From: Microthyrium microscopicum
Taxonomy: Eukaryota
Length of the DNA stretch: 64,000 nucleotides
Assembly (NCBI GenBank): GCA_010405405.1
Contig: MU004233.1
Coordinates: forward strand, 571,835-635,834
Direction: 5' to 3'
Shown piece after piece: positions 23,414 to 46,475 of the stretch; positions within the stretch are counted from its first letter, which is position 1, and every line of letters starts with the position of its first letter. Below the pieces are notes generated by a model. That model had not been told where the DNA came from. It ran no database searches and was given only the letters and a program-made list of their open reading frames with translations. A program made the position numbers and the translations under genes.

Positions 23414-25615
23414 ATGTATCGATCGCGCGTTGCCCCAATTGTTTCGAAGACTTATGCTCGATCAAATGACCCGCTCTACACCTCAACACGCCCACTTGAG
23501 TGGCTGTTCAAGGAAGCTCCAATTGAGATAGCTCTACGCATTCTAGAAGAATGCTTTCCTGTTTTCGACGAACAAGTTTGCTACCCAGACGGAAAGCTCT
23601 ACGGCATCAAATCAAAAATGCGAACAGCTTTCGCTACGCTCGCAGCCTCTCCACATTTTCTCGAAATAACACAGGTAAGCATTACTCTGAGGATATATCA
23701 TGGGCCAATTTACCATGTCGGCAATTGCCAAGATCACACTCATCGCCGCTACCTAACAGGTATGGTCGTTGTGGCTACCGCAGTACCAATGTGGACCAGG
23801 CGCAACGTAAATTTCAGTTACTGTCCAGCCCAGAGGCAATTGAGTAGCTACGAGGCCTGCTCAACTTACGTTCGGCGATTACCTCCCCCTTAACATATTC
23901 TTCAACGTATTCTTCAGGTTAACAGCCGTCTAACATCAACCAGGGGCCACTTCCCGAGTCGCTGCTCCGCTCATGGACAAGCTACTCCACGGGAGGATTC
24001 TTCCTTGCTGCAGATACTGAGGGTATAGTCGAGACGAGCATGACGTTGCTGACTACTACATCTGATGTGAATTTCAGCATGTTTGAAGATATACCCGTCT
24101 GTCTAGGAATGGATAGCTTTGGATCCTACATCCGCGACTTCTGGTAAGTTCTTCAACACATAGTCCCTTTCTCCATGGGAGAACGACTTGGTACTTCCAA
24201 TATTCTGCGGTCATAGCATGATAGGCCTGTGGCGATCTTACGCAAGCCGAAAACACATTGCTTCATTTCGAAAGATGGCCTTACTCTCCCGGTGCCCTTT
24301 CTCGAAATATCTTACCCATTGCCCAAGTCCCGACCTTGTTGACAATCTTTCGCTAACAATGTAAAGTTATTACCAATCGCGCTCGTCCTCGGAAATTCAA
24401 GTTCATATCAAACTTGTCATCGAGGTTTTGAATCTTGGGCACCTCTTGGTCAAGGTTATTCGGGAGCAGCCTTCTATCTCTACCTTGGTGACGCAGTCCA
24501 CCATCATGCCAGCAGCGACCTATTCCGACGAAGACCAATTTCTTCTGCTGGAGCATCGAATATTGCGTGCTGTCGCTCATTTGCAGCTATACATCGCGAT
24601 GAAGAATTGGTCGTACGGCTTTTCGCGCCGGGAGATCATATACTGGCTTTTTGTTCGCCCACACGGTTGTGAACCACTGGAAGAGTCTGGTATTCACTAC
24701 GCAGACACGAAAATCGTTCTTCATTGGATGCAATATTTACACAAATTGTTTTCCAAGCTCCAAGTCAACGAGAATACTGGCGGCGTCTTTCAAGCCATCT
24801 TCCGAACAGAGGTGATGAAATCGCTTTTCAAGACCACACTAGGCAATGAAGGTCACGATTTGAAGTCATCTGGCAGCCAATGGTCTGAAGAACTCCATTA
24901 TGAACTCCCTTTTGCCAACAGTCTAACGCGATCCTCCATGAGCGTGGCCGATGGATTATGCGATGACATAGCCATTTATCTGGAAGATGCCGCGGGCTAT
25001 TCTTGCTTCACTAAGCCGTACCGAGCAGACCTGGCATATCGAGAGTCTCACGATTTTCTCATTGAAGAATGTGAAGCTTCACGTCGCCGCGACCGGCGAT
25101 CATGTCTGTCTAAGTACCCAGACGAGTACTGTCTCCACGAGATCTGGCCTCTCATTGACAAAACTACTGGAAAATATAAGGGTCAGCACCGTTTGATTTC
25201 TCCAGTGAACCTCCCTGAGGAATGGGAAAGTTATGGTGCGCAACAGTGGAGTAGTAGTACTCAATCCTTATGGACCCTGGGTCATTACCCACGATGGCGA
25301 GCGATTACTCCGACAGTAATCCAGCCATACACCCTCCTTAGAGACCCTCACATCTTTCCCCGGTGTTTCCGATGCTTTGACCGTCGTTGGGAATCTCGAT
25401 ACCACCAGTGCTCATGCATACCAGGCTTATGGCTCATTCTTCAGCCAGAGCGTCCTCACAATCTTTCGCAAGTTCTCCATCAGATGATCGATGCCGAGAT
25501 ACGCTCGTCTCGACTTTGTCAAACAACACTTGAGGTGATCTGGGGAATGGAAAAGCCTCGAGAAGGTTGTACAGGCGCATATGGACCTGGGATTGAGGTT
25601 GGACGGGGCGCTTGA
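23414..25615 (+). CDS. Array paralogue P4 (multi-exon, internal exons uncertain)
   Basis: FKEAPIEIALRILEECF, HRILRAVAHLQLYIA, CLHEIWP, MIDAE..CQTTLEVIWG. Donor sites GTAAGC ~23674 and GTAAGT ~24144. Confidence 0.7.
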
Positions 25616-26276
25616 GGGACTATTCGTTGCCTGGGATCTCCTCTAAGGGATCCGTTCTGACTCTGTGACTGTTTTTTAAGCTCCTGGAAGCCAAAGGTTT
25701 TGACGATACTTTGATATCCTTGAGCCATCATTCTTATTCTGTATCTATAGACTTTGAACAGCAGGGCCTGCACATAGAATTGAATTAATCATATGAACCA
25801 CACTTCCTCTCTTCTGAGCCTGTTGCTTCTACCTGGAATTCACATTAGAAAACCCAGGCGGGCTAGAACTGCGCGTAATTGTCTTTAAAAGCCAGTCTCC
25901 ACCCAGTCACGCCTGTTGTCTGAAGTCGTGGAGTTCAAACCCAAGAGTTCGCTGTAGTTGGCTGTCGCGCGAAAGAGGTACCTGCCTTATGGGTGATCTC
26001 TACCTCACCCGTTGTCTACTGAACAGTTCTGAGTCTAGCTCACCTCGTGCTCTGGTTATTCCTACCTCTATCTTGTCAGTTGTCAAACTTGCAAACTCAT
26101 AAACTCACAAACTCACAAACTTCTGATTGTTTAGACCTTCTTCCTCCCTCACTCTTCGACCTCTTAATCTCGCTGACCCTCAACTTCCTTGGAAGAACCT
26201 CCGCTTTCTTCTTAGTACCAGACGATAATCTTGGGCGAATCTTCGCTACTCTCATGTCACTTTCAAATCTCTTCTC

Positions 26277-26372
26277 GCCATCGCTCACTCGTTACCATCG
26301 CTCACTCGTTACCATCGCTCACTCGTTACCATCGCTCACTCGTTCCCATCGCTCACTCGTTCCCATCGCTCA
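26277..26372. repeat. 18-bp tandem repeat (CCATCGCTCACTCGTT(A/C), ~5 copies)
   Basis: Directly visible, in the degenerate 5' region of P5. Confidence 0.9.
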
Positions 26373-26733
26373 CCTTACCCCTAACACTACCTCCATACTG
26401 CCATATCATTCAAGCAAAATAGATTTGGCACCAAAATACATTGCTGTCTGCGCTCAGCGAATAGCACACAAAATCGTGCTACACCACTGTTATTCTCAAC
26501 AGCCTGCCGAATGTTACAACCTTCCCTTTATCCATACGTCCGGCTGCCACAGCTCTATTCTCGCCGTAATTAAGCCCAAACACCTTACGTCCTCTTTGGG
26601 GACAGAACGAGTGAGCCGTTCTGACGACGATTTTCATTGATGACGATGGCTGCCATAACACTTCTGGAAGAGCGACAACTTTAATTACCATTGTGTTCGA
26701 GGATCTGATGTAAGTTCTCTAAGCTAATGGGAC

Positions 26734-27943
26734 TTGAAGCAGTTTGTCCACGCAGAGATTGCTACAGAATCTTTGCTGCTTGGTCGACTGATGGCCAAGC
26801 TAATACTGGAACGTCTAAGGATCTGCAAGATGGTCACGGAGTCTTCCCTTATGCCACAAGCCGGTTACTGCTTTCATGAAGATCATTTCGTTCTTCTCAC
26901 TCATAGACTTACGCGGGCGACTCTCAGACTTCAACTATATGTTGCTTTGACCAAATGGAACGGGTTTTTGAGCGCCCAAGAGATCAACTTCTGGACATTT
27001 GCTAAGGAATTTGTCAATGACGAATATGCTGTGGACCTTCATCAAACTGAAGATGTTGGACCCGTTGTGGAGTTGCTTCAATTTCTTCACGGTCACTTCT
27101 CACACCTGCAAGCGGCAGACGGAGGAAATGGAATAATCTCTCAGATTTTATTGAGTAGGTTACTGAGCTCATTGTTTGCAGGCTGTCCTGCAGCAAAGAG
27201 TTCTCAACTTCGCAGAGAAGAGCGGTCAAAGTGGTCCTTCGAGCTTGACGCTGAGTTGCCATTTTGTCAACCCCAACCGATTTTGACGCTCGCAGATCAT
27301 CTGCAGTTTGACTTGGCTTCATCCTTCGCAGAGTTCCATTCTGAAATGGATTTCTGGTCCTACTACGATTGGCGAGATTGGCAAGATTGGCCATTCAAAC
27401 CCTGCCCAGTTTATATAGATCGCAAATGGGGAGGAAACAAAAACACAGGCATGCATTGTATTCACCGTTACTTTCCCGTTATCAGCAAAGTTACTGGGTC
27501 CAAACAGGCTCTCATAGCCTGATTTGCCCTCGTAGTACTATTAAAGGCATATCTCAGCGCTTTGAACCTTTGCCAATCTTGATCTCAGCTCGAGACTTTA
27601 CCCTCCAGTAAACATTTCATTCCCTGGTCGGCTGGCATGCCATTGAAACAACAGTACACAATCTTTTCACGCTCGACCTCGGGAAAAGAGGCTGCTGAAG
27701 TCAGAATCGCTGGTCTGATCGGTATACGCGATGTGATCGCCCTGAGCACAAGCTTCGGTGCGAACCTGAGCTTCGAATTCGCCCACATGGTCTATCTACT
27801 TGCCTCCGCAAGATGCTTGATGCTGAAGCACGCGGATTCCATCTACGCCAGGCAACTTTAGAGGTGTGCTGGGGTTTGAACAACCTGAAGAGGGGTTCAC
27901 AGGCGGGTATGCTCCAGGATTTGATACTTTTGAGAAAACGTAA
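26734..27943 (+). pseudogene. Array paralogue P5, pseudogene
   Basis: HRLTRATLRLQLYVA, CIHRYFP and MLDAE..RQATLEVCWG are present, but there are frameshifts near 27500 and 27875, an in-frame TAA at 27609-27611, and no recognisable F-box-like start. Confidence 0.75.
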
Positions 27944-29177
27944 GGCCTTTTGCGGCCATGCCAAATCAAGTACGCCGGTTCGGCTTCCGTGACTTTGATG
28001 GATAATTGCCACACGCAACGCGGGCCTCTCGTCTGTTGGAAAGCGACACCTTTCTGACTTGAAATTCCGCCAAATAATGGTTCTTCCTCATCTTACACAT
28101 TCCCTTTATGCTAGCTCCTATGTCTATCACACAACGGCAGCTTCGAATCACAAGGACATTGGTCGACAATAACTGCTTGATCTTTCGTGATGCTGGAAGC
28201 TGAGAGGGTACCTTACAGCTATTACTGCATTTAAACACACCAATTGTATGTCTCGCTAATCAAATATAGCGCCAGATGTGGATGTTTCGAGATGTTACTT
28301 CTTCATTTTATAAGAACGGTATTCAATAGGGTCGTGGTTCACGTATAACTCCAACGAGCTGCTTCCACTTGAGCGCTCAAGGACGTTAGCTTCGTTCATT
28401 TTATTGTTATAACAACTCCCGTTGAGGCGAAACCTTCCAATCAGTCGAGTTTAGCTTAAGCTTCTTATATTCACGACCAGTAACGAAACACCCTTATTCA
28501 CTTCTATTGATCTAGCGGTCTCGTTTGTCATCAAGCCCTTCCAGGCTAGGAGAAAGAACTTGAAGCAATCGTCAAGATGCTTGTCTTAGCAAGATGAAAT
28601 GTAATGTGGTCATTCTTCAAGAAGCAGGCTCGATGGTATGCAGCCGCTTACTTGATAACCTGTGTGGGTGACCGCCTGGGGGCTCCTTCCCGACTATCAA
28701 AGCCCAACTTCGCAACTTCCTAGGAGGTACCACAACTCATAACTGCACCTCATATAAATCGTGAGTGATTGTAGCAACATTTCACCTCATAAAGCATTTC
28801 ACTCGCTCAGCCTCTCAAAGATTATATAATCGCATCCCTGAACATGTGCTTAAAGCTTTCTGCACTCTATGATAATATTCTGCACCACCCAAGTTTGCAA
28901 ACCGTCTCTCTACCCTTTCTCATTAAATCTCCATCTTCTGCGTTACATTCAACTCTGCAAGCTTTTATATTTTTCTAGCCGCCTCCGACGTTGCTCGAAA
29001 TTCAAACAGAGTTTGATCGCCGAAAAAACCTAAAATTGCTTTCATCCACTGCCATCTTCACATAGCGTAGCTCTACGACTACAAGTTCTACAACAACACA
29101 ACGTGTACCTAGAGCAAATTGCAACATCAAGATCACCACAACAACACCCAGTATTCTCATAGGATTCCTGCTTCATC

Positions 29178-31708
29178 ATGTTTCCGACCAAAATTACGCC
29201 CATGATCTCTTCACAATACACCCGACCCGAAAGCAATGTGGACCTCCCGCGGCTGCTTCAATGGTCGTTTCGAGAGGCGCCGATTGAGATCACATTAGAC
29301 ATTCTCGAAAAATGTTTTCCTCCGTGCCCACAGGTATATTATAAAGGGAACCGTCTCTTAAGCCACAAGCATGAGCTTGCACCAGAAACACAATCCGTAT
29401 TCGCTGTGCTCGCGACTTCACCGGATTTTCTGGCCGCTGTGCAGGTAAGTCTTCCTCCCTATGGACATATAAACCTTGAGTCATCGCTACGTAGCGTGAG
29501 GATCACCCCTAGTTCTGAGACCTTGCTAGCTGGCCTTTTGTGGTACATCGTATTGGAAGCATTCACTAATAGATTCCAGAGTCCATCGATTTCCAAGTCA
29601 CTGCTAGCGACATGGGAGACCTATTCATTTGGCCATCTGGTTCCTGGTGTATGCGAAGCCATGATTAGAACAGCTACAGTCATCATGAAAACAGCTCAAC
29701 CGGAGGAGGTGCTGCGCTTTGATCCCGATACTTACCAGGACAATGATGACTGGTTCGATGAATTTGGATACTTCCTCGACACATACCGGTAAGTCTACCC
29801 CTCACGTCGCAATATAACACCTACTCTATGAGCTTCGCATCAATGAATTTTACTCTACTAGTTCTATACTGATGCTTCTAGGCCATACACGGATGCTCCG
29901 CGTCGCTCCGTCTCACAGCTTTCTCACCACGCTGAGCTTGCAATCGAACTTTCTACTCTTACCAACTTCTCAATCAAGCTAATTCTCGAATGTCCTTCAA
30001 TTTGCAGCATCATCACAAGATCTTGTTTGATCCCACCAGCCGAGTACTCGAAAGAAAACCAGACAATGCTACTCCAACACCGCATATCGCGAGCTTTTGC
30101 GTATCTTCAGCTATACGTTGCGATGTCACGCTGGAAGCCTGAGCTCTCGGACAAGAAGATCATATACTGGCTTTTTGCTAACCCCATGGGATACAATTAC
30201 CGCGCGATTGATGGCCATCAATCTGAAGATGTCAAAACTGTTCTGGAATGGCTTTGCTACCTAGAGGAACGCTTTTCGTCGGCGGGATCACTACAACATT
30301 CCAGTAACATCCTCAAGCCGATTTTGTCCAGCAAACTAGTGAGATCACTGTGCAGTATTGAGCTAGATGAAGCTATCCTCAAGACACAAGAGCCTGAGAG
30401 TCAGTGGTCATCAGAGCTACATTATGCACTCCCATTCGCTACCACGCTCCGACCCGCTATAACCCTTGCCGAACGTCTAGAGGACAGCATGAAGAAACAT
30501 TTGAAGCAAGCCTTTGCGCTTGTTAAGGGAGCCGGGTGGTACAATATCGAATGGCGCAACTCGTCAGACTTACCCTTCGGTCTCTGTGAGGCTCCCGAGT
30601 ATCGGTGTCCTACTGATGGGCAAGCGCGACAGGCGATGTATTGTCTCCATCAGATCTGGCCTGTCATCGACAAACACACCAAGCATTACAAATGCCAAGA
30701 CAGCGCCATCGCTCCAACAAACGCAATCATCGACCCTTGGTACAAGCCTTACAACTCGAAAGTCTGCTACCAAGTAAAGCTTGCCTGGTTCGGCTGGCAC
30801 ACTCGGCTTTCTATTGTCCATCAGCCATATCTTTTGATAAATAGAGTTGATTCCCTCCGCGGGTGCCGTCGATGTGACATTTCCCGGGAATGGGAGAACA
30901 GGTATGTGAAGTGTTCGTGCCAGCGGAGGCTACGATGGCATCTGTATGACGGCTCATAACGGCCACCCTGGCCACTTCACCAAAATCCAAAATCTAAAAA
31001 TCTATATGTTCACAAATTAGTTATTTACACCACAAAGAGCCCAAATTTGAGGATTCTAAAGAAGCCAAATAGTAAGTTGAATTTTTCTGCATTTTTGGGA
31101 TGTCTAAAAGTATTATATCTTTATGTTTTGACGCGAGGAGTGGGACTTTATAATTGTTGATATTTTTTGCTTTTTGATAAAAAGTGGAGCTTGACGAGGA
31201 TGCCCTTTTGCTCACTAAGTAGTTAGTAGGGTCTGTCCCTAAGTTAGTGAGGTAAGCGCCCTTAAATTAGCGAGTCCTTTATGCTCCAAAAATGCCAAGA
31301 AAAGATCATATTTCTTGAATTAAAGATTAGCTTCAACAATTATAATTAAATAGACTTTTCTAGCTCTTAAAAATTAAGTAAAAATCAACTTGCTATTTGG
31401 CTTCTTCAGAATGTCTAAATATGTGCTAGATTTGGTATAATAATTGCCTTTACATTTCTGTGTTTGTTGTACTTTTTGGTTTTGGTGAAGTGGCCAGGGT
31501 GGCCGTTATGAGCCGTCATAATCTGGCGCAAAGACCACGCGCCCCTTGGAACCCTTCTGCTGCTCTCAACCGCTTGATTGACGCTGATATGCAAGCACGA
31601 AGTCTCTGTCAACAGACGCTGGAAGTGGCCTGGGGATTGGAGCGGCCGAAAGAAGGGTTCACAGGAGCTTATTGTCCTGACCATTTTTATGCGTCGTCCT
31701 CGTCTTAG
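29178..31708 (+). pseudogene. Array paralogue P6, disrupted near its 3' end by MITE-3
   Basis: FREAPIEITLDILEKCF, HRISRAFAYLQLYVA, CLHQIWP. The C-terminal LIDADMQ..CQQTLEVAWG lies after the insertion. Confidence 0.75.
30945..31520. mobile_element. MITE-3, 576 bp, 41-bp perfect TIR, 5-bp TSD ATCTG
   Basis: TIR TATGACGGCTCATAACGGCCACCCTGGCCACTTCACCAAAA at both ends, ATCTG at 30940-30944 and 31521-31525, further imperfect inverted similarity internally (~31045-31087 vs ~31380-31420), AT-rich interior. Confidence 0.92.
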
Positions 31709-32837
31709 GAAAAAGAAACAGTGATTAGGTTCTGAAGTTCGAAAGAAGAGCTTGATGGTTGCGGTTCTATAGGACACTGCAGAAGTTGAATTTGTTCATA
31801 CTAATTGACTTCGAGCCTTCGATTTTCTCCTCATTTCCAAGTGCCTCTATGTAATTCTTGATTGATAGTGAACTAGACATAATGTACACTACCTATCAAC
31901 CACCAGATTCTCTTCTGTGTTTGCACTATAGGTTCCAGACTATATGGTAAGTTACATTACATGACCACGCGCTTTGAAGCGAGCTGCTAGCCACCCAGTT
32001 GAGATGGAACGTCGGCTGGCGATCGGGATTTGTTGTCTCAAGGCGCCCGTTTTGAAAATAAATAAAGATGGGAAAAGATGTCGCTAACTGACGACTTGCT
32101 AACCTTTCCATATTAGTACATTATTGGAGCTCAATGTCCCGGCTTCATCATGAGACAACAGATTGATTGAGGTCTAGAAAGATAACCACATTTTGATTGT
32201 AATTTCCTGTAGATTCCTCGCGACACGGCGATCAGGAAGTGCATAAATTGGTCTCGAACATGACAGGCCGACAGCACTTATAGGTTTTTCCAATACCTGT
32301 CCTGCTTAGCATATACTCTACAAGGTACATTCTCTCCCAGTTGAGGATGCGTCCTGTTCCTCGTGCCATGGATTCAGGCACGAACCTATATCGAGCGTGT
32401 GAGGTAGGAGCAAGCGGAACAATCCATTGCGGTCCATGATCAACCTTCAGCTCGTCCAATCCAGTGTAGTTATCGATCGAGGCCATTCGTGCCTTCCCCG
32501 TTGCTCTTACCAAAGTCTAAGTTCACCTCCATCAAACACTTCCACCACTCTTCAACCACCTCAAGGTATTTTTCAGGTCACTGCCCAGTTATATTGTTTC
32601 CATAAAAGGCATAATGAATTTTTAGAATGTGACGATTTACGCAATCCCACTACACGCCCATTTCACCTACCCTTCAGCGTCTCCATCAACCCTACTGTCC
32701 GCTGACTATCGCATTAATTGATCTACCCTTCAAGCCAGAAATATCGGTCATTTTCTACCTTGTCAGAATTGCTTCATCCTCAAAAGACAAACGTTCATTC
32801 TCAGAGAGTGCCAGTTTGCAAACTTTGCTACCCAATC

Positions 32838-35308
32838 ATGGCATCTTCTTCAATCGCCAATCTCGATCCCGCGCGACAGTTCTGTTACAATCTTAATCGA
32901 TTACCTCTGGAAGTGCGCGAATTGATTGTTCTGGAATGCTTCCCTACGTATCGACGTTCTGATGGCATTAGTCGAAATGTGTTCGAAGCATCTGTCACTG
33001 CAGCTTTCAACATGGTTATGTCCACAAAATCCCTTTTCGAAGCTTTCGAGCTCGCGCGCACCAAGATAGCAGAAGCCTTTCATACCTACGAACAAGCTCG
33101 TATGAATGTTGGTACTTATTTCTTCATCACGAGTGTTACCGCATTCGCTAGCACGGAAGGACCAATGGAGTCTTCAAAATCTGTTCCCACTGGGACCGCG
33201 GCGGTGGCTCTGATGCGTCTTGAAGGTTATCACCGAGTTTATTATTCACGTGAACCTCTCTTGGAGAATGACAACCAAGGCAGCCTTGCGCTGATGAGAC
33301 TCCTGGATCTTTCTATGGATACTTTCAAGGTTGCGATGGCTATTACTCGACTTCTAGATAATGCGCCGGATCTAAGCGCCGAGTTAGGCCAGATTGTTCC
33401 TCAAAGTCATCGATATCTTGCCACACCGAAAGCCGACCGCGACACCATAATCATCAACCGGATCACTCGTGTCTTGCACCATATCCAGCTGTTCGTCGCA
33501 ATCAAACGTTGGCTGCCTAAGGATACTGACGACGATGTCATTCAATCAGGCGTTGAAGCCGTTATGAGACGATCACATCGTTATCAAGGTCTCCTTGAAG
33601 TTAGCCACACATTATGTTTGATGAGATTTCTTCAAAGTCTAAGTCTAGAAGCAAACACATTTGGCAATACGAAGTAAGTTTTCCAGCATCTCGAGGCATA
33701 TCTTGGACACACCCACGGCCTCCCAAGCTCTTTTTGGCTCCCAACGTATGGTATTCATGAAGCGCATTGGGGGGTTGCGCTGAAGAAATCACATGGTCTA
33801 TCAGCGCGTGTGAGCTCAAAAAAGCACTATTTGTTCAACACTAATAAGAATTAGCAATCCATCAGTTTCAAGATTACTGAAGATCATCTCGGAGTCAGAG
33901 ATCGTTGGACAAATCCTTCAGCGAACGCTTGACGCAGTTCCAATTTCGGCTCCTGTTGGCCAGTCTTCGAATGCGTATCTGCCAGATCTTCCAGAATCTG
34001 TAGACTATACCTCTGCCAACATAGCGACTCGCATGCGAAAAGACTCCAGCATGTATATCCACAATTTTGTTGGCTCTCGTCTAAAGTACTTTTCGGCCGA
34101 GTTCTACAATCTGGGTACTGCCTTTTGCGGCGCATGTAACGAAGATGGCCCGAATTACCATCAACGACGCCAGCTGCACATTCATGACTATTATCATCCA
34201 TTAGACAGCAATGGCGATGTCAAGGTAGGTTTTCAAGACACAACAAGTTCCCTAACGAACTCGATAGCTCCAAGGCCATTGCTTCCTACCGAGTCCAATC
34301 GAAAGAAAGCTTTGAAGAATCTGTATACTGACAAATATAGGCATCAGCCCAATTACGGCCGCTTAGATCCCCTCGACGCTTCGGCGAGAATCTCCAGCCG
34401 CTTCTTCAGGTGACTTTCGATGCCATGCATATGTTGGAGTGGTGGGGTACTGGAGAGGTTCATTCTGTCAAGCGACCATACTTCATCAAAAAAGCCCGCC
34501 GTGACTACTGCAGCTCTATGAGATATGCCGAACAATGTCAACCCCTGCGACCTCGCCGGGAGGATTGCTCTCAAGCTCTGAACACCATATATGACGCTGA
34601 AAAAAAGGAGTATCGTCTGACCCAAAAGAGTCTGAATTGGGAATCTACGGTAAGCTCCCTAAATCCTGAACGCCGAAGATAATGGCAACCTCCTATGACA
34701 CCCAAAACATGTGATATTTATAATCATACGCCATCGTTGCCAAGATATATTTACCACACTGTCCCAAATCGCCATCTCTTCCCTACGCCACGTTTTGACA
34801 ACTCTATCTAACACGTTTCTAGGACGGTGGTGGCTGGAACCGGCGCAACATCATTGCTGAAAGCTGGGATGAGGTCAAAGTCCGCTGGATCACCGAAGAG
34901 CTCTACGAATTAGTCTGCCCCGATGAGGATACTACACAACCTGGCACAGACATTCGCACGCTAGAATTTGCTCATGTTTTTGCAGTCGAGGCTAGCGATG
35001 ACGATGAAGACTCGCAATCAGGAAATACTGGCGATGACTATGTCGACTATGGCGAATACTGGGTCCCAGACTATGGCGCTTGGGCAGACGATGACGCATA
35101 TGAAGACTGGGCTAATCCTTGGGGTGCTTGGGGATCGGACAGCGATGATGATATTAACGGAGCAGGCTTTCCTGTATGGGGAGGACGCGGACGAGGACAA
35201 TTTCGAGCCTCATTTCGCGGGCGAGGACAAGCTCTAGGACAGGGCGGCGGAGGACGGGGTGGTCAAGGTGCTCCGCGTCGGGGCCAACCCGATGCAAACG
35301 GCTGGTAA
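32838..35308 (+). CDS. Array paralogue P7 (multi-exon) with acidic WG/GW- and RG-rich C-terminal tail
   Basis: LNRLPLEVRELIVLECF, NRITRVLHHIQLFVA, HIHDYY, IYDAEKKEYRLTQKSL. Last exon 34823-35308 is open after intron ~34650-34822. The middle region 33.7-34.45 kb is not fully resolved and may contain frameshifts. Confidence 0.65.
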
Positions 35309-36052
35309 ACTAGGAAATACTTCCTTACGACGCCGGCATCATAACATCAAAGGTTTGACCACTTGTGGTTTGGTCGGGATACGGCTCAGTGACTTATCGC
35401 TATAAAGGGCCTCTATTTTCTTGACTAGATCCAGCAAGTAAGAGTAGAAAAGAATGTTTTAAACTTCGACAAAAGAGTTTATTGCTTGGATGTAGATTTC
35501 ATGACAGTATCAATCGTACTACTAACTATGGTGAATGATTGTCTGGGTCTCATAAAGCGGGATACTTGGATGATGAGTTCATGAATACTGCTCGCAAGGC
35601 TTGCTATAACGCTTATTGAAGTAGGCTGTTTGATGACCATCGAGTATGTTATACTTGATACAAGAAGCATCGGCCAAGGATAAAAATCGGTTTGAGTTTC
35701 CAAAAGCTAACCATATGTGCACACGTTACATCCCAATGAGAAATTCCTCTGAGGGCAAATGAGCATACTTACGAAGTACGTAGGTCTTGATTACTGACGC
35801 CGCTATTCGATGAAGAAATTTGATAACTTCTTTCGTTATACGAGTAATTTGACCATGTCAGTTGATTTGAGAGTCTAACCGAAGTAGCTCATGTTTGGAG
35901 CAATGATCCTCTGACATCCCACAATATCCAATACTTAGCCTTTCCCAATCTGTTGCAGACAAAAATGTCTCAACATCCTCCAGGCATTTGATCCTCTTCA
36001 GTCCAGATGTCGAACCTAGGTACTCTTCCAGCAGTACACAGACCAAGATTAC

Positions 36053-37624
36053 TTACCCTTCTAACCCCTTCTTGAATCCCTTAGCCACGGTGATGAGGCA
36101 ATAAAGCATAACTCCCGCCCCCACGGCACTTCCAATTGACAAAATCCGTTGAGCCCGTCCATCCGACGTTATTTGTGCTTTCGTAATGCGATGTAGGAAG
36201 GCGGATGATGAGCTTCTAGAGACTTCAGCCCTTGAACCACGACCGCGATGTAACGTATAATAGAATCTACGAAGTGCGGACTCTTCATTAGCCCGTAGCA
36301 GCCAGGAATGAATCAGATCGTGCTGTCTATATCTTTGCTTTTCTTCTCGACGGTCTCTCTTTCTCCAGCCAACATGTTTTTTCGGTGGCAGCGGCTCAAT
36401 ATGAATTAGACTCGTCCCAAGGACAAGTCTATCGCTGTTGCTTGTGCGCTCAAAGTACTCGTGGATGCATGGCTGGCGTGGGCCAGGTGCACTCTTGTTC
36501 TGCAGATTGTTTACAGCACAAAATGGTTCGCCAATCTCATGGAAGCGCGTTGGCCGCATCACCGGGTTATGAGCGTGTATGGACCAGATCCAGTGGCTCT
36601 GATCAATCGGTATTCTGCGGATGTAGGAAGCCTTGTCTAGCTGGATTTTGCTTGCCAAGTCTCTATAGACCATGCTAGCGGTTTCACCAGCGCTCGTCAA
36701 AGGGGGGGCATTGATTTTGGAGAACAGTGCTTGGACAACCGGTGAAGCTATGATCGTATAAACATGTCGACTTGGAGAGGGAACTTTGCCATTGCTCCCT
36801 ACCCCCTTGAGAGTTCGACGCGTTTGTTCGGACAGATGGACTGTACGGAAGAAAACTATCAAAGCCATCGTATACGCCAGGTCTTTCTCGGTTGTAACTT
36901 TTCCACTTCTGACCAGCGTGCGGACCATGAATTCCTCGATCAGATCATCATGGACGGGATGTCCGGATAGCCATTCACGTACAGCAACGTAAAGCTGCAG
37001 ATGTTGCACAGTTCGCATCGCTCTATTGATGACTACCATGGCCCGATCAGATGCAGATGGGAATTGTTTTCGTGTAGGTATGAAGTCATCAATCAGACAT
37101 GCGCATAAGCTTGGAGCAGTCTCCGTCAGCTCAAGCACGGCGTATGAAATTGCAGAAGCCTCATAGTATAAGTCGAAGAATTTGTCGTAAGGTAGAGAGT
37201 TCCAATCAGGAGATACAAGCTTTCTCAAGACTGTGCATCTCTCATCAAGACCAGACAGTCCTTTCAATCTATTGAAGTCGTCAAGATCGAAAATCGGCTT
37301 CAAGCTCGCCTTAGCAGCGATCTTGGTAAGATCCGCGTAGAAGCCCAAATCGATTCTGTCAGCTTTAAAACTGTTGAACGACTCTATAAGCCATTTGCTT
37401 TCCATCATAAGAACAGCCCTTAAGCAAGGCGTGGCCAGAATCATCTGGAACGTACTGGAGATTTCCTTCTCAAATGTGCAGAGCTCAATCATCATCTCGT
37501 CAGGGCTGAAGGGCTGTAGGGAATAATGAAGAATTTTGATAAGGAGTTCATTAGGTAGTCGGTTAAGGTTGGCGGCCAGCCGGTCCACTAGAACTGCACT
37601 GGCGTTGTCTTTGAGAGCAGGCAT
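36053..37624 (-). CDS. Array paralogue P8 (inverted; may have a further short 3' exon)
   Basis: LNRLPNELLIKILHYSL, NRAMRTVQHLQLYVA, GEPFC..CIHEYF. 523-aa ORF ending at a GTAAGT donor-like site. Confidence 0.8.
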   Translation of the reverse strand: MPALKDNASAVLVDRLAANLNRLPNELLIKILHYSLQPFSPDEMMIELCTFEKEISSTFQMILATPCLRAVLMMESKWLIESFNSFKADRIDLGFYADLTKIAAKASLKPIFDLDDFNRLKGLSGLDERCTVLRKLVSPDWNSLPYDKFFDLYYEASAISYAVLELTETAPSLCACLIDDFIPTRKQFPSASDRAMVVINRAMRTVQHLQLYVAVREWLSGHPVHDDLIEEFMVRTLVRSGKVTTEKDLAYTMALIVFFRTVHLSEQTRRTLKGVGSNGKVPSPSRHVYTIIASPVVQALFSKINAPPLTSAGETASMVYRDLASKIQLDKASYIRRIPIDQSHWIWSIHAHNPVMRPTRFHEIGEPFCAVNNLQNKSAPGPRQPCIHEYFERTSNSDRLVLGTSLIHIEPLPPKKHVGWRKRDRREEKQRYRQHDLIHSWLLRANEESALRRFYYTLHRGRGSRAEVSRSSSSAFLHRITKAQITSDGRAQRILSIGSAVGAGVMLYCLITVAKGFKKGLEG

Positions 37625-38390
37625 GACTCTAGTACAAATCGGACTAGATGTTGTCTCTTGTCTGTAGTAGTTTTGCGCTGTAGCGTATTCTTTGTGAAGC
37701 GTTCGTCTTCTTCGTAGGTCAAAATCGTTGGCTGACTAATGCCTGAAATAACAGAGAAGCAGTGATGCCAGGATACAGCAGTATTGGTTAAGCAGGCAAA
37801 CCGACAGCAAGAAGATCTGAGTTGATGGCTGTAGGAGGCTGGTAGACAGGTGGGTAAATGAGCATCAGAACATGGGAACATTTATATCTACAAAGAATTC
37901 AGCAACATGCGAAGCGAAGTGACTAGCCGGTTAGTTATTGTTTGAACCTGGTAACGTGCGCACAGGGGCAGCTCAAGCATACCTAGGTGGAGCGCAATAG
38001 CATATGCGAAGTCACTGACACGTTCAGGTGGACATTGAGGTAGCATTAGTCTTGAAATGATCATCAGAATACAGAAAGGTTTAACTAAATCGCCTGGTGA
38101 AGTAATTCAAGCATGGAATATTGTGCCTCTCCTCCGTAGCAAAAGCACTATCATGACTCCGTAGTGAAGTTGTGGAATAGATGACTGGAGCTTGAAAAAT
38201 ATTAGGAAAATTACGCATTATCTGGGTTCTCAATAACAGGCCATGACAACTCAAGAGCAAAGCTATAACAGAATATTCATAATCAGTGCCTCTAGTGAGT
38301 GTGAGAACCCCGTCCGTCGAACACATGACTCTTGCTGCAAAGGAAACAGGTTCACAGACCTTTTGTCAGATCCTGTGAAAGGTGAGGTAC

Positions 38391-40270
38391 TTAGTTCTCA
38401 AGAAAATGCAATGCTTCCCGCTGGGAAGAATCGCACATAGAATGGTAACCATGTCCATAGTAGAAATGAAAATTCTGCCATGGAGCGTAAGATTTAGGGT
38501 CGTAGACCAAATCCTTACCCCAAGCCAGATCCGAAAGCTTACGCTGACCAAGTTTCGAGTGTTTGGCTCTAGCATCCTGCATGCGACTGAGCGACATAGA
38601 TGGCTGATCTCTCGAGAATAGAGGCTGATTCAAGGCACTGACACTCGTTCCTTGGTCAGCCCAGGCTGAGGCATGCCATGGAAAATCACCTGGCTGATAG
38701 ATGTACCGCCACTCTTTCCAGTTCGAAAGCTGTTTGAATACGGTCTGTCTCCGCGTCAGGTCTCTCGTCGAGGGTCGCAATCTACCAGGTCGAGGCTTCC
38801 GAAACTCCATTTGACCAGAATCAAGTACTAGTCTCGCAGTGGTATTTGTACTCAAGTAGTATTCGTGAATGCAAGGCTCGCGTCGCGTCGGCGGTTTGTC
38901 GTAATGCCATCGTATGGACAGATTATAACGGTCGCAAAACGATTCTCCCGTTTCTAAGAAACGATTTGACACTTCGGTTTGGTAGCTGTCGTCCTTTGGT
39001 CCACCAAGCCGATGAACGTAGGAGGCTGGATCAATTCGAAGTCTATCCGCGACAGTGTGGTACTCTTTTCTAAACACTCCTTCAGCATCTGGTAGAAGCA
39101 CAGGCTCTGGAGTCAGGAATAGAGAGCTTATCAGTGCGCTTGAAGCAATTGTATGCGCGTAAGGATTGTATTCCGGTACTTCAGAGCCTTCAGCCATCAA
39201 CTCTCGGATATTCTGGGCTTTTTCCTTTGCGACGATGTCGTGAAAGAATTTGAGCAACGCAAAGGTGTGAAGGGGATCCTTATAGCTGCCAAACATGTCC
39301 GTGTAACGCAGCATATCAAACACTAATGCTTCGATGCGGACATCTGCCATGCGGCCTCGAAGCCAGTGGCGAAAAGCCTGTAAAGTGTTAACAAATGATT
39401 CAATGGCAGGTTCAGGGTTAGCACAAGCGTTGACAAGAATATATGGAATCTGGCGTCGAGATCCTATCCCCAAGAACTTACTTATGGAGATGACCAAGAG
39501 ATACCATAGATACCACTCGATAATTTGCACCCAGTATGCGTTTTTCGAGGGAGAAAACTTACGAGGTAAAGCTGAAGGTGTTGAACGACTCGCATTACTC
39601 GATTGATCACAACCGAGACATGATCGACGGAACACGGAAACTCCTTGGGCGCCGGTAAGAAGTTTTCTCCAAGCTGAGTGCAAAGTTCCGGCGCTGTCTC
39701 TGCAAGCTCAAGGACTGCAAAGGCAATGTTGTAGGCTTCTCTGTAGAGATGCGTAAAATGAGTGTGTCGAATACTGTCGGAAGTTGCCGCGAGAAGAATA
39801 GTCAACGGAAATTGACATGTCTTGACTTCTAAGAAATTGAGTTCTAGATCTGGTTTTGAGGAAGCAACAGCGGCGACGAGTGCAATGTATCCATAAGTGC
39901 CAAGTTCGATCGCCGATTGTCGATAGCTAGCGAAGGATGTTGCTAAGAATTTGTTGTCCATCAGAAACGCGGCGCTCAATGAAGGAATAGCTAGAGTCAT
40001 CTGAAAAGCAGCGGCAATGCATTTCTCGAATTTATACAACTCGAACAGATCGGCCCAAGGAGCTTCCTCGTATTTGCTCACTCCTGGGCGCCATATTTCG
40101 TATTCTTGCTCGCTCGCATGGTGTTGAATATAGCCATAGCTATCGACCGAAGCGGGAGCAAGGGGAAAGCAGTGGCGGATTATCTGTATAACTATCTCTG
40201 GCGGCATGCGGTTGAGATTTTTGACGAGGCGTCTCTCCTCAATGGCGTTATGATACTGTGATGGCGCCAT
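38391..40270 (-). CDS. Array paralogue P9 (inverted)
   Basis: LNRMPPEIVIQIIRHCF. Intron 39378-39562 gives QHLQLYL|AFRHWL, matching P8 QHLQLYVAVREWL. GESFC..CIHEYY and MQDAR..GQRKLSDLAWG. Confidence 0.8.
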
Positions 40271-41071
40271 TACTTTGATTCCTGTACGGGCAAGAGACTG
40301 CAGCTCAATAGTAGTTGCTGGGGTGTAATCGTGGTTTTGGATTGGTAGAGAGGTTGTAGCATGTAGTGAGAATGATTAGAATATCAACAAGATTGTAAAA
40401 GGTTTTCTTGATATCTTCGAGCTCTGCTTAGTGAAAGGCAAAGTGACCTAAGACTCGACCTCAGAAACTTGGTATAGGTGCAGGTATCTGCTTGACGTGA
40501 AGAGCGAAATCAACTAGTACTAGAAAGATACCTCTGAGGCCAGGGAAAAGTGAAATGTTTGAGAGCATCATGACCCGCAAAATGTGGGCAAAGAATTGAT
40601 CAGATCATGCCGTGTTGAAGATTTGTCTGGAAACATTAGATACCTACTTAGTGTTTGAACATGAGAATTGTTTGAATAATGTAGAGAATAGGCTCAATTC
40701 ATCAGTATTGAATGTGACCGGCCGGGTTGTCTTCGTGCCCAGTGAATTTATAGTATGTTTGACATCGCTCACACACTTATACTCTACAATTTGCCCAAGT
40801 ACGCCTACTGAAGATCAACATCACATTGGTTGCACCTGCCACTCTGGCGTTAGATGTCCCTGACTATATTTCTTGAGGAAGTCACACACCACATAATATC
40901 TGAGGCAGCAACGATTGCTCCTACTGTATCAGGCAATCGAACCAATGGCTAATTCGAAAATTCAAAGCTTGAAAAGTTCTCACTCCAAGGAACTTTGACT
41001 CTACTCAATTCTTCTGCCTCGGACTTTTGATTGCTCATATCTTAACCTCCAATTGAATACTGTCCGACGTC

Positions 41072-43201
41072 ATGGCTTCCAAAAGCCTCAAACATCTTCC
41101 CTTCTGCCGAGCACTTGACAGACTTATTCCTGACCTTCAGACCCAGATTCTGCGATTGTGTTTCGTGCCCATGTCTGCACTGCAAATTCAGCGACCCGAC
41201 AACAGCGATGACAATGAGGCCGCGGACATATACAAGGCCTTGGAAGTCCTTCTTTCTGCGCCGCTTCTACTAGAGACCTTCTGGAAAGATCCACAAATGT
41301 TGTCCAGTTTCCGAACTTACACACCGGGCCGTAGCATAGCGCCTTTTGACTCTACTGCACGTGTCACGATGGCACTACTAACTCACCCGAACATGTAAGA
41401 AATAATCTGCGCCTATTTCGTCTCAGCACCCATGGAGCATTCGAAAGCGAGACTAGCCTTCACTTTACCTGGAGCTTGCTGATCCTCCGTGATTGGTTTC
41501 CTCAGCCATTGCACCTCTCCATGACTAAGTTTCGATCACTTTGTTCACATTCACTGACAATTACTAGGCAAACGGACTACAGATTTGTCGACAAAACGAG
41601 CAAATGGGATGACGACGCCACACATGGGCTTTACTTATCGAGTCCTCGAAAGCTTTCTGTCTATGTTTCCGTCATGCATGAAATCTATATAATGGCGGTA
41701 TCAATTCTACGATTGACTGAAACGGCACCGGAGCTATGCACGGTGCTTTTCCAGTCCAAGATGATGCCGCTTGCCGGCCTACCTAAAGTGGATCAGCACA
41801 CCATTTTGGTCTATCGTCTTCGGCGAGTGCTTCATTCACTCAAGTTTTTCGTGACTGCCTGCGACCTTCATCCTAGATCTATGGTAAGCGGAGCTACACA
41901 AAACTTCCTCGAAATCTAGAATCTGTGGATGTCATGCTGACAGCTCCTAGTTTTTAAACTTGCTAGATGTTCTTCGAGGTATCATTGCTTTGAAGCGCCG
42001 ATATGGTTTTGCTGATAACGAAGAGCCAAACGGGTACGAAAAGGCACTGGTAATTCGATTTTTGCAAGATTTGGATCAGTTACCGCAGGTAGGTCAATCC
42101 GGTCACTCATATATGTTAAGAACGGTCTTGAGTGGCTACGCACGAAGCTGCCGTGCCGTTCGAGGGTTTGATAAATCCGTGACGTTACTATACTTACCGG
42201 CTCCAGAGTATCAAAACGCAGAACGCCGACGTCAATCGCATCATGTCCTCGGATTTGACCCAGAAAATCCTTTTTAGAGCTAAAACGTTGAACTTGGCCA
42301 CAAATACAAAATATGTCAACAAGGATCATCGCCGATTTGCCTACGAGTTTCCCCGCCCGCTATGCGATCAACATATGTGGCCTGAAGCCAATTGGACAGG
42401 CTGGAAACTTCACAAGTGAGATACTTTTACCCTGAACCCCATTCAATAAATGCCTCATTGACGGTTTTGACATTGCACAGGTCATTTTGCATCCATGTCC
42501 TTTTCCGACCTCTATGCGAGGTTACCCATCAACCGAAAGAATCATGCGCTCTCCGACGGCTCCGTGCCAGTTCATATCGGGCGATAACGGCTCCGGCCAA
42601 GAAGAGACAGCTCACCTTCAATGACTTCGCCGCCCAAGGCTGGCGAAATATTGACACAAAATACAGTCAGCGACCCTACTCTGTGTCACACATGTGTGCT
42701 CATCCAGAAGGACACTGTCCATATAGTCGATTCTCGCGACCCCTTTTCAGGCCTCCGGTGAAATATGGTGGCACCGAACATGATCTTGAGTCATTCAGAC
42801 CTGCACTGAGTGGAAGAAGTAAGCTGGAAGTACAGATGAGAGACAAGGAGGATAGCCCTGTGTGGCTGCGCGTGAACTTGAAGCCTTGTTCGGCGCGTCT
42901 GAATGATATCCTTATTGCCGAGGAGACTCAAGCATGGCTCAGCCAAACCACACTACACTGGAATGGGCAAAAGATCAAGCTCCCTACCGCTGACAGTCAG
43001 ATACCCTTGATTCGATATCGTCGAGGTAAAGAACTAGGTCATTTGGAGGTGTTCTTTGTCTCTGACCATATCTTCAAGTTTATGAATGATGAGGACATGC
43101 TTGAGTCAGATATGGGAAGCGCTCCGGTCAGTACGGAGCTAAATTTCAGGCTTGATTGGCAACGAGAGCTGGAGTATGAGACAGCTTTGATGGCCGTGTA
43201 G
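41072..43201 (+). CDS. Array paralogue P10 (multi-exon, possibly degenerate)
   Basis: LDRLIPDLQTQILRLCF, LTETAPELC, YRLRRVLHSLKFFV, FCIHVLF, ILIAEE..SQTTLHW. Splicing not fully resolved. Confidence 0.6.
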
Positions 43202-44307
43202 CCGCGACATAAACGTGGACAATTCACGCAGATTCGAGAAGACTTATTTTGGTCGGAGGAAAAAGAGGGGTTCATGCGCGGCGCGCGTTGCATTTGCAAG
43301 ATCCTAGGTCAGATGAGAACCAATAAGATCTGTTCACAGAGCCCACCAATCCTTGAGCAAAACCTTTGGTCTTGTTGCTGACGGACTCGTCTCACGTAAC
43401 ATGTTACTGCGAGACCATGCGATGACCTGATGTGCATGAGCAATGTTGTGATACAGATAGGCTCCAGAAATCCTAAGAGATGGGTACTTAAATCGTAAAC
43501 CGGACGAATACGACCGCGGTAGTGGGGCTGTTCTTTCTGTACATTTAAGTAATGGAAATAACCCCGTGCAATATAAGCCCTGCCTCTCAACCCACTTTGT
43601 TCAGCTTGACGAACCATGTAGTTGCTACACTGGCACGATTGAATGTATTGTTGGCATGAGGGAATGGAGTCGAGAAATACAAGCGCTAAGCCTTTTTCGT
43701 GCATATGGTTCCTCGCTGCAAGAGTTGCAGGCAACTTGCAGCATATGAGAATCTTATTAGGTCATATTTTCAGGTTTAATCTCCTACATATATTGAAGTA
43801 TCAACGTGTAGCGGGTCGAATCGCTCTGTTCTCATACAGGTAGCTACCTACCTGGTAATACACGCGGCATATCGCGGACAGTTGAAAAGGATCAATCAGT
43901 CTTGGCAAGGCTGAGCACAAGGCTGACGGACAGGGTTCAGCACCTTAAACCAACGACATCTCCTCAAAGCTCAGCAGGTCAACAAACCCCTTTAAATCTG
44001 CAACTCTTGAATATTTCAAGAAAGGAGCGGAGAAGTTGATGGTGGCTGCTACTTCCACATCCATGAGTACAACACTCTAGATATGAATTTTCGAGGAAAA
44101 CTCAGTAATTGAACGGTGTCAGTGTCTTTCACCTACCTAGGTATTCAGGCACTTTTAAAGGACATCCACCAGCAATTAGTTGACAACCGATGTCCTTACC
44201 TCTACCTCCGCATCCTCCTCCTCTGATATTCGAGCTTTTTACCTTGTTTTACAACCAAAACTTATCGAATAGCATCCGCTTTGGATTACGCTGTCGACAT
44301 TAGGATC

Positions 44308-46475
44308 ATGGGCTTTTCGCCAACTTCCTTCCAGGAGCAGAGACAGCTTGCAATTTGTTTGCAACGGTAAGTCAATCTCCTAACTGGCGTGCTCCCATCT
44401 ATTTAAATGGCTCCCACGAAGGCTTCGAATCAACCACCGCTATGTTTTCCATCGCATTCGATAGACTGTGCCACTCTGAGCGCTCTTTATGGTATCTGTC
44501 GCACTCGATAGCAGAGCGTATCATCATATGAGCTACCGCATTCGATGAAATGCGCCAGCCCGAACGCCCTTCGTGGTATTTGACGCGCTCGATGTCGCAT
44601 CATTCCAAGTGGGAGCCATGAGAGTGGATGGGAGCACCCCAGTTCTTTGGTTCATCGGCTTTTCTTCTTCGTCGCACTAATGATCTACAGAATGCCTTTG
44701 GAGGTAACCTGCCAAATTGTCAGATTCCTCCTACCTGTTTGTCATCATCGAACCATTCCTGAGTTTTACGAGGAGCAAATTCAAATGGCTTTCCGAATGG
44801 TGAGTCGTCAAATCTCGACACACGGTGGAAGCTAACTGGACATATTCAGCTGGTGTCTTTACCTACGCTTATGGAAGCCTCCAGACTCGAAATTGGTTCA
44901 CTATTTCTGGCCTTGTCGAGCCACGAAAAACAAAACGTCAAGGTGATGCCCTGGATAGCGACTGTATCGAAGAGTCTTGCCTTTATCAATGGTCCGCCGA
45001 TATTTCATATTCAGCCTTCACTTAGATTTCCCCGTTTTTCATCCGACAAGCTTTCGAATTGGGTTTATGATGCCGAAACGTACCTAGATTCATATTTCGA
45101 AGAGAACGGAAAGATTCAAAGTCCTAAGGAAGCCGAATTGTTGTTGGAGCTCTGCCACGAAGTGTGCCATCCGGCAATACTTATTGTGGAATTAATCAGC
45201 GACTCCCCCGACCTTGGCAATCTGCTTTCTGTCATTCTTCCATCCCACCAGATGGCGAAAGCCGACCGGCATGCGATTGCCTTCTCTCGAATCACAAGAG
45301 CCCTCGTGGAGTTACAAGCCTATATCGTCATGCGCAGCACGCTTGTGCAATTCTCCACGGACCAGATTGATGCTCTGCATGGTAAATACATGGCAGAATA
45401 TGCTGGCCACCATTATAAGCACGCAGATCTCGGAACTTTAGGTGCAAAGCAACGCGTGCTGGCGCTAATGGAATTTCTGACCAGTATTCGTTCTACAATC
45501 TCCCGGACACAATCTCAAATGCACTTGATCGAGCTCATCCTATCAACAAACCTTGTGCGACGGATCACACTGTGTGGGTTGGATGAGTGCTGTCACCCTT
45601 TCGACTCGTGGTTAGGTTATTGCCTCGCCATGTATACTCGTCGATGTCGTGACAAGCCCAACCGGCGGTCTGATGGCCAAGGTCAACTTTCCGGTTGGAC
45701 GGTTCATGTTTGCCACTCACCAGAAAGTAGGAATCCCAAGCATCTATGCATTCATATGCATAGATTTCTTCCACTCGACAAAATCTCGAGGAGATTCAAA
45801 TCATCGGGTCGTCTCTTAAATACACCACGCATCTGGAGTCAGCGCGAGCAAAAGCCCAAGTTCTGCCAGGAGCCCGGACAAATCAGATTTGGTGACTCCT
45901 ATCTCAAGGGATGGAAATGCGACTATCCAGGTCTCAATCCTCGCGTGTGTCGCCGCATGTATCGCTACATACCCAAATGGCCAGCTCGCAGACCTTACGC
46001 CGTCTTACATGCATGTCCGACCATGAGACAGGAAGACCCATGTCGAAGCCATCGTATTTTCCGAGTGAGACCGCCACCACGACACTGTTCCTCAGCACTG
46101 GACGCCATGTTTGACGCGGAGGAAAAGCAAGCTCGATTACGACAATTGCGACTGGACTGGACTTGGGGTCTACAGTCAAAGCACCGATTCGCCAGGTCTA
46201 TGCCAGACGGTGCCATGATTGACCCGGCAGAGGTCAATGTGCCGGTGGTATGGGTGGGACATGACTTGTTTGTCTGGCCAGACGAGCTTGAGGAATACGA
46301 GTATCCTACTTTGTACGAGCGGCCCACATCTCGCACCAGCAGACATTACCCTGTACCTGCCGATGACCTATGCGAACACAAAGACCCTACAGCTCGCGAA
46401 TTTGGGACACTACGATTTCGGTATTGCGATCAGAAACATGAGTCAATGGCACGTGAGCAAGAGAGAAACTTCTGA
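44308..46475 (+). CDS. Array paralogue P11 (3 exons)
   Basis: Introns 44367-44690 and ~44800-44849 give LQR|MPLEVTCQIVRFLL..QMAFRM|LVSLP. SRITRALVELQAYIV, CIHMH and MFDAEE..RQLRLDWTWG. Confidence 0.8.

Follow-up and report, generated by a model that had tools for sequence, protein, structure and literature searches.

We analysed a stretch of 64,000 nt of the Microthyrium microscopicum genome (GCA_010405405.1, contig MU004233.1, 571,835–635,834 of the forward strand), hereafter the window, in whose positions all coordinates are given. The subject is a four-exon gene on its forward strand, and in particular the last exon of that gene, 34823..35308, which encodes the C-terminal tail of the protein. 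Joining 32838–33673, 33855–34224, 34341–34649 and 34823–35308 gives the public 666-aa protein P0001, letter for letter, i.e., the hypothetical protein BT63DRAFT_477447 [Microthyrium microscopicum], which was also the one match when the exon-4 protein was searched (100% identity across the exon). A preliminary description of this DNA had proposed that 34823..35308 is a hidden last exon of a protein that it called P7; the four-exon join reproduces BT63DRAFT_477447 exactly, as that proposal would have it, and the translation of the interval is identical to the sequence quoted at the time. Because the join equals the public protein, exon 4 is already in the public annotation. It is thus a real coding exon, the fourth and last of an annotated hypothetical-protein gene, hidden from an open reading frame (ORF) track based on ATG starts and not from the public gene model. 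Among the titles and abstracts listed in a literature search by species name, none dealt with this gene, whose database name is only ‘hypothetical protein’.

Exon 1 (32838..33673, +) opens with the ATG at 32838 and encodes residues 1–278, i.e., an N-terminal LNRLPLEV motif and most of a helical body that is common to paralogues in the window; it is 25% identical to a neighbouring paralogue (E = 2e-20). Exon 2 (33855..34224, +), also part of P0001, is 27% identical to the paralogue P0002 (E = 2e-7). The two introns that flank it, intron 1 (33674..33854, +; GTAAGT..AG, 181 nt) and intron 2 (34225..34340, +; GTAGGT..TACTGAC..TAG, 116 nt), are both needed to reproduce the public protein; intron 2 came out as the best candidate when GT..AG introns that preserve the frame were enumerated, and in the neighbouring paralogue the place homologous to intron 1 is read through in a single ORF. 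Exon 3 (34341..34649, +) matches residues 435–493 of the paralogue P0004 on 34467–34640 (36.5% identity, E = 2.6e-6, tblastn) and ends in the last conserved motif of the family (..AE..RL.Q..L..W..), where family homology ends. It had been feared that a frameshift upstream of exon 4 made the gene a pseudogene; this was rejected, the change of frame being the ordinary intron 34225–34340, with an exon 3 beyond it that is homologous to a paralogue.

For intron 3 (34650..34822, +; GTAAGC..CTAAC..TAG, 173 nt), the signals reported earlier are all present: the donor GTAAGC at 34650, the CTAAC about 11 nt upstream of the acceptor, and the acceptor TAG at 34820–34822. The exon 3/4 junction therefore has a canonical donor, branch site and acceptor, and is in phase 0. 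The TAG at 34820–34822 doubles as acceptor and as the in-frame stop from which the exon-4 ORF opens, so that the start of exon 4 cannot lie further upstream. This stop-to-stop ORF (34823..35308, +; 161 aa) has no in-frame ATG over its 161 codons and, since it opens at the acceptor TAG, is translatable solely as a spliced exon. Its length counts for little as evidence by itself: when the window was shuffled by mononucleotides, a mean of 1.05 ORFs of at least 161 aa arose per 64 kb. The training set for a codon-usage score was nine further window ORFs, each part of a recognisable gene. Frame 0 of exon 4 scored +0.243 bits per codon and the other five frames −0.016 to −0.70; exons 1–3 scored +0.11 to +0.15 bits per codon in their own frames, and in intron 3, as in the 600 nt that lie downstream, each of the six frames scored below zero. 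Retaining intron 3 would bring the frame to a stop at 34680–34682, 10 codons further on (ORF 34341..34682), and give a short protein without the tail.

A HMMER search against 1.84 billion representative proteins returned three relatives only, P0002, P0003 and P0004 (E = 9e-21, 1e-17 and 1e-11), which match the N-terminal 300–500 residues of this protein. They too are hypothetical proteins of M. microscopicum, share one 2.85-Mb contig and have neighbouring accessions; tblastn places them at 35973–37624 (−), 38394–40270 (−) and 44308–46472 (+). They are part of a paralogue cluster at 14931..46472 which, from tblastn, ORF translations and alignment A2 taken together, comprises about 11 loci including this gene. 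The paralogues are 13–27% identical to it (alignments A1 and A2), and the loci at 18.1–20.1, 23.3–25.6, 29.2–31.7 and 41.3–43.2 kb are split over several frames, through introns or decay. The family, for which no Pfam match was obtained, is marked by an N-terminal LxRxPxE(I/V), a helical body with a ..R.TRA...LQLYVA..W block, a C..CIH motif and, near the C-terminus, a last conserved motif ..AE..RL.Q..L(E/D)..WG.., and this gene belongs to it by colinear similarity across the helical body and the C-terminal motif.

Beyond that last motif the copies diverge. The paralogues carry 23–105 residues of unrelated sequence there; in this copy the motif lies at the very end of exon 3, a splice donor follows directly, and 161 extra residues come after it. 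BLASTP of exon 4 against P0003, P0004 and the paralogue at 20.9 kb detected no significant similarity, the best colinear stretch being to P0004 at E = 28. MAFFT does align the first part of exon 4 with P0004, colinearly over the junction; homology of the two was rejected on the same BLASTP value. Word-indexed searches with exon 4 (1 of 6081 candidates), with the whole protein (1 of 8000 scored) and with a 13-row family profile returned the protein itself only, and carry little weight, since they also missed the known paralogues. As judged by these sequence comparisons, exon 4 is unique to this copy, without a detectable relative. The end produced by reading through intron 3 is about as short as the shortest ends of the paralogues. 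We infer, as the simplest history, that a donor arose in this copy immediately behind the ancestral end and brought in a new 161-codon exon.

Exon 4 can be divided into three parts, all on the forward strand. The first (34823..34987; 55 codons, residues 506–560) holds 3 W and is specific to this copy; it is followed by an acidic aromatic block (34988..35176, residues 561–623) and a glycine-arginine block (35177..35308, residues 624–666, with the stop codon at 35306–35308). That exon 4 encodes an acidic, W-rich segment and then an RG-rich segment had been proposed before, and counting the composition of the blocks agrees with it. Residues 561–623 contain 16 D and 4 E with no K or R (net charge −20), together with 5 W, 5 Y and 1 F. 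Residues 624–666 contain 16 G and 8 R (net charge +7), two RGRG units and one RGG, their aromatic residues being 2 W, one of them C-terminal, and 2 F. The last 106 residues (561–666) thus hold 7 W, 5 Y, 3 F and 8 R; Y and F make up 7.5% of the tail, and its tryptophans are spaced by 7, 9, 4, 3 and 16 residues among small and acidic residues. Exon 4 is eight times richer in tryptophan than the rest of the protein, with 10 in 161 aa vs 4 in 505 (Fisher P = 2e-4). Motifs of the RGG/RG type were reportedly sorted by Thandapani and colleagues in 2013 into di-RGG, tri-RGG and di-RG classes, according to whether two or three RGG units, or two RG units, lie a few residues apart. RG occurs here at residues 627, 629, 637, 639, 650 and 658, and the two RGRG units place the tail in the di-RG class; the single RGG, at residue 650, leaves it outside the di-RGG and tri-RGG classes. 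An origin of the tail through tandem DNA repeats was also considered and rejected, as the only repeat was a 9-bp unit in 2.2 copies at 35036–35055.

In the AlphaFold2 model of the whole protein, the predicted local distance difference test (pLDDT) is 52.8 overall. Residues 1–300 are helical with pLDDT 55–88; within residues 506–560, helices are predicted at 512–519 and 522–536 with pLDDT below 50; and residues 540–666 have pLDDT 25–37, which in a model of this kind is consistent with disorder of the tail. For residues 556–666 the ESM Atlas gave no usable feature match, and its structural rows all had a template modelling (TM) score of 0.28 or less.

Our leading, though by no means firm, reading of these features is that the last 106 residues form an intrinsically disordered, two-block tail for multivalent interactions. 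Such a tail would act as a module of many low-affinity contacts. A partner with tryptophan pockets could receive the spaced tryptophans, the RG block could contact RNA or be subject to arginine methylation, and the acidic and basic blocks could pair within one molecule or between molecules, which would mask or cluster the protein. With intron 3 retained, the product would be the tail-less form that ends 10 codons past exon 3, and splicing might in this way act as a switch for the tail.

Several points weigh against the interaction tail, and they bear in part on explanations of another kind. What supports the 34649/34823 junction, on which the tail depends, is the public gene model together with splice signals, frame and codon usage. 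In the one public run used (X1, the RNA nature of which is a guess only), neither reads nor contigs contain the 34649/34823 joint, and exons 1–3 and intron 3 have no cover, which speaks neither for nor against expression or the junction. Two contigs of X1 span 34822–35112 and 35184–35385 without differences, and the second crosses the stop codon, so that the coding sequence would be followed by a likely 3′ untranslated region of 77 nt or more (35309..35385, +), the guess as to RNA applying here too. The first contig is complete and ends at 34822, a G which is the last base of intron 3 and equally the last base of exon 3. A break at this shared G is expected of word-graph assembly if the reads hold two upstream contexts, and the contig end is in this sense a weak hint, from one study, of splicing at exon 4. 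Were the public 3′ gene model wrong, the protein would end at 34680–34682 and 34823–35308 would be 3′ untranslated sequence or belong to another transcript. This would suit the missing joint in X1, the read-through tail, whose length is typical of the paralogues, and the roughly one ORF of such length that chance supplies per 64 kb. We nevertheless consider it very unlikely: frame 0 is the sole gene-like frame of exon 4, with no such signal in the intron and the DNA downstream, the junction has its canonical donor, branch site and acceptor in phase 0, and the X1 contig ends at the acceptor.

The tail is found in no orthologue or paralogue, and consequently there is no sign that selection maintains it. 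It may be a young and essentially neutral extension, in which a donor after the ancestral C-terminus captured a downstream open frame and a low-complexity tail without a specific partner was tolerated. The whole of exon 4 is without relatives, the stretch past the last conserved motif is highly variable in length (23–164 residues) and in sequence among the paralogues, and reading through intron 3 yields a short tail that resembles theirs. Set against this are a codon usage as gene-like in exon 4 as in exons 1–3 or more so, the eight-fold enrichment of tryptophan, a rare residue, over the rest of the protein, and a sharp acidic/basic split of a kind that the drift of a random frame would not usually give. 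On balance we judge a neutral extension somewhat unlikely. A further point against the interaction tail concerns its disorder, since the low pLDDT may stem from a shallow alignment instead: the AlphaFold2 alignment had 13 rows, and zero over the tail.

The tryptophans had suggested an Argonaute hook in the preliminary description, which had counted five WG/GW dipeptides in exon 4. The count is correct; the excess over composition that would make it telling is absent. Exon 4 has 5 GW/WG observed vs 3.5 expected (P = 0.26, 20,000 shuffles), and the last 106 residues 4 vs 3.2 (P = 0.39, shuffles), which counts against the interaction tail and the hook alike. We also scored the tail as by a hook predictor, which had been proposed as a check, by re-implementing the ‘dos’ score from Table 1 of PMC2910046, with a drop threshold of 8.6 and the domain grown from WG/GW motifs. 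In that source (Karlowski et al. 2010, PMC2910046), the dos threshold is 6.99 half-bits, a ‘medium’ class runs from 25 to 150 and strong platforms lie above 150, and a second filter of the same predictor is an internal composition score (ics) of at most 2.14. Residues 590–666 (77 residues, 4 motifs, 6 W) reached a dos of 38.0 half-bits, above 6.99 and in the ‘medium’ class, and so pass on the dos score alone. The tail ranked first among the 51 window ORFs of at least 150 aa (the next scored 15.6), the paralogues scored at most 7.6, and 0.25% of exon-4 shuffles reached 38.

The same source names glycine-rich segments as the main false positives of the dos score, gives an Arabidopsis RGG RNA-binding protein a dos of 38.9, and has Y and F penalised by the dos matrix and disfavoured in known hooks (PMC2910046). 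The 38.0 of the tail is at the level of these glycine-rich false positives, half of its scoring domain being the RG block, and this, too, weighs on the unfavourable side. The Arabidopsis protein, RGGA AT4G16830 (dos 38.9, Table 2 of PMC2910046), also resembles the tail in having C-terminal RGRG units spaced by F and G runs. With the WG/GW platforms NRPE1, SPT5-like and GW182/TNRC6, as far as they are described there (PMC2910046), the tail has in common a disordered character, here predicted, richness in W, G, D, A, S and N, poverty in L, I, M and C, and a dos of 38.0 above 6.99. It differs from them in extent, with 77 residues and 4 motifs vs a score above 150 and tens of motifs in strong platforms, and in holding Y and F as well as an RG block that fills half of the scoring domain. 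As to the conservation of the tryptophans, the search of 1.84 billion representatives found no orthologue, and the 3 relatives are all same-contig paralogues without the tail. Fission-yeast Tas3 is a further WG/GW platform that binds Argonaute. From its sequence, then, a hook for Argonaute in the tail appears neither supported nor excluded.

P7 had also been labelled ‘F-box-like’. Pfam, a profile search of solved structures and fold searches leave this label unsupported. Sixteen Pfam queries were made (this protein and each of its 4 exons, the 3 paralogous proteins, and 8 ORF pieces from paralogues), of which zero matched an F-box (PF00646, or PF12937 F-box-like) above cut-off; the one F-box-like match at E ≤ 1 covers 15 residues of the paralogue P0002, with E = 0.11 and 12.7 bits vs a cut-off of 24.3, and this gene had none. 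When 8 N-termini were made into a profile and run against solved-structure sequences, there were five matches at E ≤ 10, with no F-box protein among them. The model of the N-terminal 100 residues (pLDDT 81.2) has helices at 11–20, 24–34, 46–62, 64–72 and 74–86; Foldseek returned 0 matches for it at E ≤ 0.001, and in the VIA wide search its best Z was 6.7, with no F-box protein among the 50 matches listed, which included generic helical repeats and glutathione S-transferase (GST) C-domains. Likewise, the whole-protein model had 0 Foldseek matches at E ≤ 0.001 and, with VIA, a best Z of 5.8 to generic helical arrangements only. That F-box proteins do not appear in the four fold-search lists should be taken as absence and not as exclusion, and the protein may still hold a very divergent F-box.

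Two leads towards an F-box are left, the second of them weak. Strings of the form LPxE(I/L/V) are typical of F-boxes, and the N-terminal LxRxPxE(I/V) motif has P23 and E25 invariant in 8 of 8 N-termini (consensus LxRxPxEIxxxILxECFPP). The other lead comes from the ESM Atlas, a language-model comparison in which the features of residues 1–505 had Ascomycota hypothetical-protein clusters as their nearest neighbours (score 0.90–0.91), 7 of the 30 being named F-box; of the members of such F-box-named clusters 10–21% carry an F-box, and 4–10% of shuffled proteins reach the score.

The proposed layout, with a short N-terminal adaptor motif and a W-rich end, can be compared with two known systems. 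With the polerovirus silencing suppressor P0 it would have in common the pairing of a minimal F-box-like motif and GW/WG-like motifs directed against AGO1; P0 is viral and has no sequence relation to this protein, and the F-box-like motif here is the LxRxPxE string only. The other is FBW2 of Arabidopsis, an F-box protein whose unstructured, W-enriched C-terminal domain is needed for AGO1 degradation, and in which the hook predictor detects only one motif, part of the domain (bioRxiv 10.1101/2021.03.24.436811). On the layout proposed here, the short N-terminal adaptor motif, structured middle and unstructured W-enriched C-terminal domain would resemble what that text gives for FBW2. The two differ in that FBW2 has, in the same text, a recognised F-box, leucine-rich repeats, an SCF complex and a shown degradation of AGO1, and this protein no detectable F-box or repeat domain, and in the RG block found here, none being described for FBW2 there.

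An Argonaute hook on a ubiquitin-ligase adaptor, by which Argonaute would be brought to degradation as by FBW2 or P0, could draw on the ‘medium’ dos of 38.0 half-bits vs 6.99, on the spacing of the tryptophans among small and acidic residues, on FBW2 as proof that an F-box can be joined to an unstructured W-rich C-terminus, and on the 7 of 30 nearest ESM-Atlas clusters named F-box. With no F-box found by Pfam, by the solved-structure profile search or by fold search, with cluster names that so few members justify and a score that shuffles also reach, with a GW/WG count that is compositional and a tail of 7.5% Y and F, and with zero orthologues in which conservation could be followed and paralogues that have no tail, we think it clearly unlikely. 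The more elaborate scheme, a fungus-specific substrate adaptor in which a very divergent F-box-type body would carry an exon-4 hook for Argonaute or Caf40 and the RG block would hold RNA, as a counterpart of FBW2 with intron 3 as its switch, strikes us as very improbable.

Partners with tryptophan pockets other than Argonaute are equally possible, e.g., CNOT9/Caf40 of Ccr4-Not. With the tryptophans docked there and RNA held by the RG block, the protein would be an adaptor for mRNA decay. The same dos score and tail composition speak for this as for Argonaute. In the literature (PMC5303829, PMC12819147), moreover, the W pockets of CNOT9 bind disordered W motifs of GW182, and disordered regions of RNA adaptors recruit Ccr4-Not. 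The tail has no specific motif match for such a partner, and Pfam recognises no RNA-binding domain in the rest of the protein, which makes an adaptor of this kind quite improbable in our view. The RG block also invites comparison with the RNA-binding proteins fibrillarin, nucleolin and Sm D1, which have glycine- and arginine-rich (GAR) tails. It differs from GAR tails in having one RGG and two RGRG in 43 residues with an acidic W block directly in front, and in that no RNA-recognition or other RNA-binding domain lies upstream.

Because FBW2 of plants already combines an F-box with a W-rich tail, the concept would be new for fungi and is not new in kind. If the tail were a working hook for Argonaute or Ccr4-Not, it would be a rare fungal example, and one of a member of a young family gaining its hook through a new exon. 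At present the value of the locus lies in a clean gene model, in a species-restricted, tandemly expanded family with freely varying C-terminal ends, which offers a small case study in how young genes come by disordered tails, and in a point of annotation, i.e., that ORF tracks overlook an exon that the public gene model holds. Its interest is modest unless binding is demonstrated.

Other members of the family show further features. An upstream C followed by C-I-H recurs in the family, with L-H-I-H in this gene (34170–34200; compare within 20886–22628), and several members have a later C..C...C.C cluster; no known zinc-finger family was matched by these, and the Cys/His pattern could be a metal-binding site. 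Some paralogues end in short acidic stretches with an aromatic residue, at 16365–16886 (+), 35973–36014 (−) and 46300–46472 (+): one such end has a D/E run and then LWQAF, and the 14-residue last exon of P0002 reads FDIWTEEDQ.... Ends of this acidic-aromatic kind may recur through the family and have been expanded in this gene. In P0002, the convergent neighbour, these last 14 codons stand on a separate exon after an intron of about 41 nt (35973–36055, −), and the hydrophobic stretch before this last small exon could be a membrane helix.

Around the cluster the window holds genes of other kinds. Just upstream of it, at 7781–11031 (−), two adjoining ORFs carry AAA_11/AAA_12, as in Upf1-like superfamily-1 helicases, and 4683–6695 (−) encodes a hybrid histidine kinase with GAF, HisKA, HATPase_c and receiver domains. 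On its other side lie a dynamin-family GTPase gene spread over three ORFs (48234–50182, −), a 1416-aa ORF with PHD, JmjC and Jumonji helical domains, of the histone demethylase type (51247–55497, −), and an RRM protein (56059–57168, −). An ORF from 63538 (+), without a Pfam match at E ≤ 0.001 or detected similarity to the family, starts with FERLPTEI, a string of the LPxEI type. At the opposite end, positions 1–2000 have a G+C content of 32.5% vs 44–50% elsewhere and may be AT-rich, repeat-mutated DNA.

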